DNA of 64,000 nucleotides from an uncultured Erysipelotrichaceae bacterium. GTDB lineage: Bacteria > Bacillota_I > Bacilli_A > RF39 > UBA660. Under the pieces are notes generated by a model, which was not told the origin of the DNA, did not search any database, and saw nothing but the letters and a program-made list of their open reading frames with translations. Numbering within the stretch: position 1 is the stretch's first letter; each line of letters begins with the position of its first letter. Location: contig CADANX010000001.1 in NCBI GenBank assembly GCA_902789425.1, positions 16,206 to 80,205 on the forward strand, given 5' to 3'. The position numbers and the translations under genes were made by a program. This document shows, one piece after another, positions 35,037 through 35,066 of this stretch.

Positions 35037-35066
35037 TATTTCCCGGGAAATATTTCCTGGGAAATA
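35037..35066. promoter_or_regulatory. two abutting Noc-binding-site (NBS) palindromes
   Basis: TATTTCCCGGGAAATA (35037-35052) is a perfect 16-bp palindrome. TATTTCCTGGGAAATA (35051-35066) has one mismatch. The 14-bp cores match the Bacillus NBS consensus ATTTCCCGGGAAAT. No U-tract follows, so it is a poor terminator. Confidence 0.7.

Follow-up and report, generated by a model that had tools for sequence, protein, structure and literature searches.

The stretch of DNA analyzed here (the window) covers 64 kb, C1:16206-80205, of an assembly that totals 1.03 Mb in 22 contigs and is 25% G+C and 91% complete. Within it, two touching copies of the Noc-binding site (NBS) lie directly 3′ of gyrA, ~9 kb from the replication origin. 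The dnaA/oriC region occupies 26226-27593 on the + strand, 8.8 kb upstream of the pair. The densest bin of DnaA boxes is C1:42-44 kb (window ~25.8-27.8 kb), and the cumulative GC skew reaches its minimum at C1 ~37 kb; because both signals fall at or just upstream of dnaA, the pair can be placed ~8.8 kb from the origin. The gyrA gene (32563-35034, + strand) is recognized by Pfam DNA_topoisoIV and gyrase C-terminal repeats. Downstream, and also on the + strand, come a promoter-like site (35102-35130; TTGACA, 17 nt, TATATT) that starts 36 bp beyond the pair, the small SRP RNA (ffs, 35128-35223; Rfam 54.9 bits), and the deaminase gene tadA (35200-35637). The latter lies between the pair and an array of three parS copies (35638-35705, no strand assigned), 600 bp from the pair. 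The copies at 35638-35653 and 35690-35705 both read TGTTCCACGTGAAACA, and that at 35665-35680 reads TGTTCCACGTGAAACG. Next is dnaX (35784-37445, + strand), which has no internal NBS here; several relatives have one in its 3′ part. In an Rfam scan of 34000-37000 the SRP RNA alone passes; a match to the Plastid-rpl20 3′UTR family at 35034-35109 (28 bits vs. a gathering score of 53) was rejected as chance. Incidentally, the first parS copy abuts the tadA stop codon and is followed by a T-run (ATTATTTTTTTT; copy and T-run in 35638-35662), and parS sites may double as terminators.

NBS-1 (35037-35052; TATTTCCCGGGAAATA) is a perfect 16-bp Noc-binding-site palindrome. NBS-2 (35051-35066; TATTTCCTGGGAAATA) has a C-to-T change at the innermost position of one half-site, and neither site has a strand. 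The two overlap by 2 bp and are 14 bp apart, centre to centre, and their 14-bp cores (35038-35051, no mismatch; 35052-35065, one mismatch) touch without a spacer, just as the initial annotation of two abutting sites after gyrA had it. That annotation placed the first site correctly, three nucleotides after the gyrA stop; the codon is TAA at 35032-35034, and 2 nt (AA) separate it from the site. It also reported a perfect 16-bp palindrome at 35037-35052, which is there, within a perfect palindrome of 22 bp (35034-35055). The CCCGGG that it noticed once is the single occurrence in the window. Its identification of the B. subtilis NBS consensus is borne out by the oligonucleotide used with B. subtilis Noc in vitro (GGATATTTCCCGGGAAATATCC), whose NBS core is identical to NBS-1 (PMC8429893). 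An NBS half-site departs from that of parS at its positions 1 and 6, and the pair has the NBS form. The first site matches NBS at 16/16 positions and the second at 15/16, with the mismatch at position 7, not 1 or 6, on a base that parS and NBS have in common.

Logan contigs from two runs, both of a single study, cover 34300-35165 and 34749-35165. Relative to the window they show substitutions at 35016 and 35094 and no indel, and because they span the pair with 35037-35066 unchanged, the tandem arrangement is not an assembly artefact. The strain in question is ~99% identical and may come from the source sample of the MAG itself. Two side observations concern metagenome contigs. Contig depth in these two metagenome runs rises several-fold over the bins with the NBS, the SRP RNA and parS (35002-35055, 35596-35703), and one contig joins 35052 to 35635 via six other letters. 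Co-resident relatives in those samples seem to carry NBS directly beside parS.

At up to two mismatches, the pair is the sole NBS in the 1.03-Mb assembly, and the three-copy array holds its only close parS matches. Set against the two matches found at this threshold, the chance expectation in the window is 0.21. Allowing three mismatches yielded 21 further matches genome-wide, none with the CCCGGG core, which we discarded as noise, and unbiased genome scans for palindromes and for TTTC-N4-GAAA recovered no other enriched Noc-like motif. A set of many scattered NBS avoiding the terminus was not found, the pair being alone in the 91%-complete assembly; this shows that the NBS here do not make up a nucleoid-occlusion array spread over the whole chromosome, as in Bacillus. 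The initial annotation had named the lack of any other NBS in the genome, coupled with failure of the local ParB-family protein to bind, as a reason to give up the binding-site reading, and at up to two mismatches the former is literally what the search returned. However, the finding of a sole pair does not refute binding; it shows that the lineage keeps few NBS, on the origin side.

The sites themselves are widespread among relatives, which are deposited as uncultured gut Bacilli, “uncultured Tenericutes” or Clostridium sp. CAG:433. NBS with at most one mismatch occur in 22 of the 24 genomes of the same family, with one to seven per genome, mostly perfect (the two genomes without any are 71% and 81% complete); a backwards-read control pattern gave zero to one match per genome. 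The gyrA-proximal 16-mer is identical at 16/16 positions in 11 genus members, with flanks that score 0.60, and conservation extends over all 16 bp and symmetric A/T flanks, not the CCCGGG hexamer alone. Together, the expectation for the window, the lack of any other match in the assembly and the invariance in these 11 members exclude a chance origin. With regard to the flanks, in 40 distinct perfect NBS of relatives, A occupies −2 in 65 and −3 in 69 of the 80 half-sites, giving AAA-NBS-TTT in the genus of the window's genome and AAT-NBS-ATT in others; the symmetric flanks could be an extended footprint or an extension of a hairpin.

In relatives, NBS are found in the gyrA-ffs, tadA-dnaX and jag spacers, within rsmI and the 3′ part of dnaX, at the recF-gyrB junction and upstream of noc. 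All of those mapped lie among origin-side genes, often 23-38 bp from parS, and multiple NBS on one contig are 23 bp to 23 kb apart (24 family genomes). Some relatives have tandem arrays in which NBS and parS alternate, with a unit of ~114 bp (G023) or 66 bp (G017). The remark in the initial annotation that closeness to a parS array is unusual still holds, and the relatives keep NBS at this locus next to parS. The 1.46-Mb chromosome CP091726.1, which is complete, has seven NBS-like sites, every one of them in the 28 kb from 178 to 206 kb; dnaA lies at 190 kb and a parS array of eight copies at 199 kb. Elsewhere on this chromosome there are only two weak parS-like matches (two mismatches). A 2.4-Mb member of the class with an ordinary Noc has near-NBS dispersed over ~±580 kb.

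The NBS inside rsmI deserve particular mention. In four genera (L145:692, L142:4346, L141:1722 and L140:3415, in homologues of the rsmI gene at 41073-41912 of the window), a perfect site encodes ISREI as ATT TCC CGG GAA ATA. In the window's genome, TCC makes up 0.9% of Ser codons and CGG 0.1% of Arg codons, and the same rsmI position encodes VSREI with TCA AGA and has no NBS. Use of codons this rare points to selection on the DNA motif itself. As a separate observation, perfect or one-mismatch NBS lie 80-350 bp upstream of noc in some relatives (L117:2379, L118:1213, L119:1418, L129:2430), which hints at autoregulation; no NBS was found upstream of noc in the window's genome.

Two genes of the ParB family are present in the genome. 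One (12018-13079, − strand; ~351 amino acids), adjoining rsmG, encodes a Noc-type paralogue that is the presumed reader of the NBS. Among solved structures, its protein matches Noc best (7ng0/7nfu, 218 bits; Spo0J, 172), and it has the Pfam domains ParB_N and HTH_ParB. Its top family is TIGR04285, at 281.4 bits over model positions 1-199 of 255, short of the curated cut-off of 315. Across the DNA-binding domain it aligns without gaps to Geobacillus and B. subtilis Noc, with Q173, K179, N184 and R201 at the specificity positions and GERR as the CTP motif. Q173 and R201 switch specificity to NBS, given a lysine at 179 or 184 (Jalal et al., PMC7383237); here residue 184 is N rather than K, and K179 is present. 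We built a maximum-likelihood tree from 50 proteins of the ParB family, drawn from 41 related genomes plus the complete chromosome CP091726.1. In this tree, ParB and Noc types are split at 100/100 support, and the proteins of family UBA660 fall on the Noc side, where they group with the ordinary Noc of other families. The noc gene is intact, and its CTP-motif and DNA-reading residues are conserved across 24/24 family genomes, including three members that fail a stricter pattern and in which Q/K/R were seen by eye; the specificity-motif pattern is unmatched in 25 of 80 Noc-like loci.

The reader departs from ordinary Noc at its N terminus. Nucleoid occlusion in B. subtilis depends on the highly conserved N-terminal amphipathic helix of Noc (PMC4331003; PMC8429893). 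This helix is absent here: residues 7-8 align to 26-27 of the Geobacillus and B. subtilis chains, the protein starts where Noc N-delta-26 starts, and the open frame extends only six codons further upstream. The helix is likewise absent from every Noc-type protein extracted from the family (23 of 24 family genomes, and CP091726.1), whereas Noc of other families in the class has an F-rich N-terminal motif. An acidic linker of ~100 amino acids, up to ~370 in relatives, separates the DNA-binding and C-terminal domains. Within it, at residues ~225-240, we noticed a short motif, also seen in genus orthologues and present in some but not all family members (e.g., IDFNTFFD or GIFDFDKII), that resembles the F-rich N-terminal motif of ordinary Noc (e.g., MGLFDFLG). 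Judged by this resemblance, the motif may be a peptide for membrane or partner binding that has been relocated.

The second gene, at C1:130754-131647, has Spo0J as its best match and carries R173/G201, and a ParA gene precedes it; on these grounds the second paralogue accounts for the parS sites. The soj-spo0J operon (C1:129979-131647) is ~88 kb from dnaA, beside a gene for an MscS-type channel, and is detached from the rsmG-noc locus, its place in Bacillus.

The explanation that we favor with good confidence is that the pair represents true loading sites for the Noc-type paralogue and, with parS 600 bp away, the only nucleation locus in this genome for two paralogous CTP-dependent clamps, ~9 kb from oriC. 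An exact site, its conservation in relatives, a cognate reader in the same genome and a distribution restricted to the origin side all stand behind it. Binding, clamp loading and a cellular role would follow by analogy with Noc elsewhere. A Noc-type dimer would read each 16-bp site via its helix-turn-helix, with Q173 contacting A1, R201 contacting C6 and K179 permissive. It would then bind CTP, close as a clamp and slide onto neighboring DNA. The expected product is a nucleoprotein domain of several kilobases that takes in gyrBA, ffs-tadA-dnaX and possibly oriC and overlaps with the domain that ParB would build out from parS. With no N-terminal membrane helix and with sites at the origin only, a role directed at the origin is indicated, and the protein probably acts on this region, in its organization or segregation or in replication control; action as a chromosome-wide division block is unlikely. 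Points that we counted against this reading are that there are only two sites, that the TIGR04285 score is below the cut-off, the N at residue 184, the mismatch in NBS-2, the 14-bp spacing, the terminator-like flanks of the single NBS in genus relatives and the + strand hairpin at a gene end.

The last of these points leads to the strongest rival, in which the RNA structure is primary: a 13-bp hairpin would serve to terminate or stabilize gyrA mRNA, with any resemblance to NBS being incidental or secondary. The pair can indeed be drawn on the + strand as a hairpin over 35037-35066, with a 13-bp stem, a 4-nt loop and a G.U pair at the C-to-T position. It folds more strongly on that strand (−18.5 kcal/mol, z −4.9) than on the − strand (−14.9 kcal/mol, with a mismatch at the C-to-T position), and, as in an intrinsic terminator, a stable G+C-containing stem begins 2 nt past the gyrA stop codon. 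Relatives offer some encouragement as well, in that the parS or NBS right after their gyrA lie within extended palindromes that have a T-run behind them (−7.6 to −13.8 kcal/mol). The single NBS of genus relatives, flanked by an A-run and a T-run, folds weakly (−7.6 to −9.0 kcal/mol) and, judged by its letters, may act like a weak bidirectional terminator; parS right after gyrA, an extended palindrome and then a T-run, can reach −13.8 kcal/mol. One relative (G004) has a TGTTTC-TTAT-GAAACA hairpin with a T-run just past gyrA (L018, ~1440-1475), which looks like a decayed parS that is now a terminator only.

However, no U-tract follows the stem on the + strand, where AATAATAAAAAAAC comes directly 3′, and a terminator scan of 34500-36000 found nothing terminator-like. 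Furthermore, two adjoining palindromes produce such a hairpin automatically. A hairpin role would leave unexplained the exact 16-bp identity to NBS and its invariance amid diverged flanks, the NBS within coding regions written in codons rare in the window's genome, and the co-occurrence with a Noc-type reader. We therefore regard RNA structure as an unlikely primary function. A terminator role of the pair is at most secondary, and it is possible that NBS sites serve secondarily as transcript ends. The judgment in the initial annotation that protein binding is likelier than termination is upheld, given a Noc-clade reader encoded in the genome, conserved NBS and no U-tract.

Rather less probable still is that the pair is a decaying relic, the last sites, now out of use, of a Noc system that the lineage is losing. 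The genome does have fewer NBS than most relatives (the rsmI, dnaX and tadA-dnaX sites are absent), one copy of the pair is imperfect, and Noc lacks its membrane helix. What speaks for a system in use is the intact noc gene with its residues for CTP and DNA conserved throughout the family, the perfect NBS-1 inside its 22-bp palindrome and invariant in the genus, and the retention of both copies in the ~99% identical strain. Finally, the idea that the palindrome arose by chance, was misassembled or serves an unrelated protein (e.g., a CCCGGG-specific restriction-modification enzyme), suggested by the sole CCCGGG in the window and by the richness of AT-rich genomes in palindromes, is effectively refuted by an expectation of ~2e-4 perfect 16-mers per 1 Mb at 25% G+C (estimated from base composition), by the backwards-read control (0-1 per genome vs. 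1-7 for the motif), by the Logan contigs and by conservation that reaches beyond the hexamer.

If the pair consists of Noc loading sites, as we favor, its geometry requires comment. Relatives have a single NBS at the end of gyrA where the window's genome has two, 14 bp apart, and the nearest spacing of NBS seen outside this genome is 23 bp. Compared in this way, the abutting pair seems to stem from a tandem duplication, 14 bp in length, of the lone NBS of relatives, and such a duplication gives each copy, by way of the other, its preferred A/T flank. From geometry, we infer that at 14 bp the readers of neighboring half-sites would be separated by ~5 bp and would sit on roughly opposite sides of the helix, and two dimers may fail to fit on the pair at once. 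The abutting pair also offers a simple means of testing whether two dimers can load next to each other. The C-to-T form of NBS-2 is the commonest one-mismatch NBS in relatives (10 of 26), a prevalence that may point to tolerance of this change or to a mutational bias at CpG.

A broader proposal, which we put forward tentatively and with somewhat less than even confidence, is that Noc, in this lineage of gut Bacilli with small genomes, has ceased to be a membrane-tethering division block across the chromosome and instead serves as a second CTP clamp, specific to the origin and loaded next to ParB at a composite parS/NBS centromere. Having neither a membrane helix nor a ParA-stimulating peptide, it would act on origin organization, segregation or replication initiation, and the abutting pair would be the minimal form of this two-protein centromere. 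In the literature, we found no description of origin-clustered NBS, or of Noc in Tenericutes-like Bacilli, beyond the work on B. subtilis and S. aureus. By its sequence, the genome appears to present a minimal form of a mixed parS/NBS origin locus, with an unusual 14-bp site spacing. The lineage retains the exact site and the residues that read it, drops the scattered sites and the membrane helix, and puts the sites beside parS at the origin. It is thus a natural experiment on several questions: how a Noc clamp behaves once membrane binding is gone, whether two paralogous CTP clamps that load within a few turns of one another help or obstruct each other, and how the repertoires of NBS and parS evolve after the ParB/Noc duplication.

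Noc is the textbook nucleoid-occlusion factor of Gram-positive bacteria, and the model combines many scattered sites with a membrane helix. The Noc-NBS nucleoid-occlusion system of B. subtilis was reportedly the subject of work by Wu in 2009. In the system as known from B. subtilis (Adams 2015, PMC4331003; Jalal 2020/2021, PMC7383237, PMC8429893), the 16-bp site is identical to the one here. The reader likewise derives from ParB and belongs to the Noc clade; it has Q173/K179/R201, an N-terminal CTP-binding domain with GERR and a C-terminal domain for dimerization, and its gene also adjoins rsmG. However, B. subtilis has ~70 NBS over most of the chromosome, with none at the terminus (PMC4331003, PMC5540599), whereas here there are two, 9 kb from oriC, and relatives have one to seven, all found on the origin side. 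Furthermore, the reader here is without the amphipathic helix and has the ~100-residue acidic linker, and the NBS of this lineage, unlike those of B. subtilis, are interleaved with or adjacent to parS.

Noc of S. aureus, which occupies 41 loci in the origin-proximal half (PMC4331003, PMC5540599), is closer in that it combines the same consensus core with origin-biased sites (PMC5540599). From these sites it spreads over 8-10 kb, and it also holds back the initiation of replication (Pang 2017, PMC5540599), a possible precedent for an origin-directed role here; its sites differ from those of this lineage in having no reported clustering with parS (PMC5540599). The arrangement also resembles ParB-parS centromeres (e.g., B. 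subtilis Spo0J, Caulobacter ParB), in which a few palindromes near oriC load a CTP-dependent sliding clamp. Here the NBS are at the same locus as parS, and relatives have tandem arrays. Their half-sites nevertheless depart from parS at positions 1 and 6, and their reader, unlike ParB, is the Noc paralogue, with neither a ParA-stimulating N-terminal peptide nor a neighboring ParA gene.
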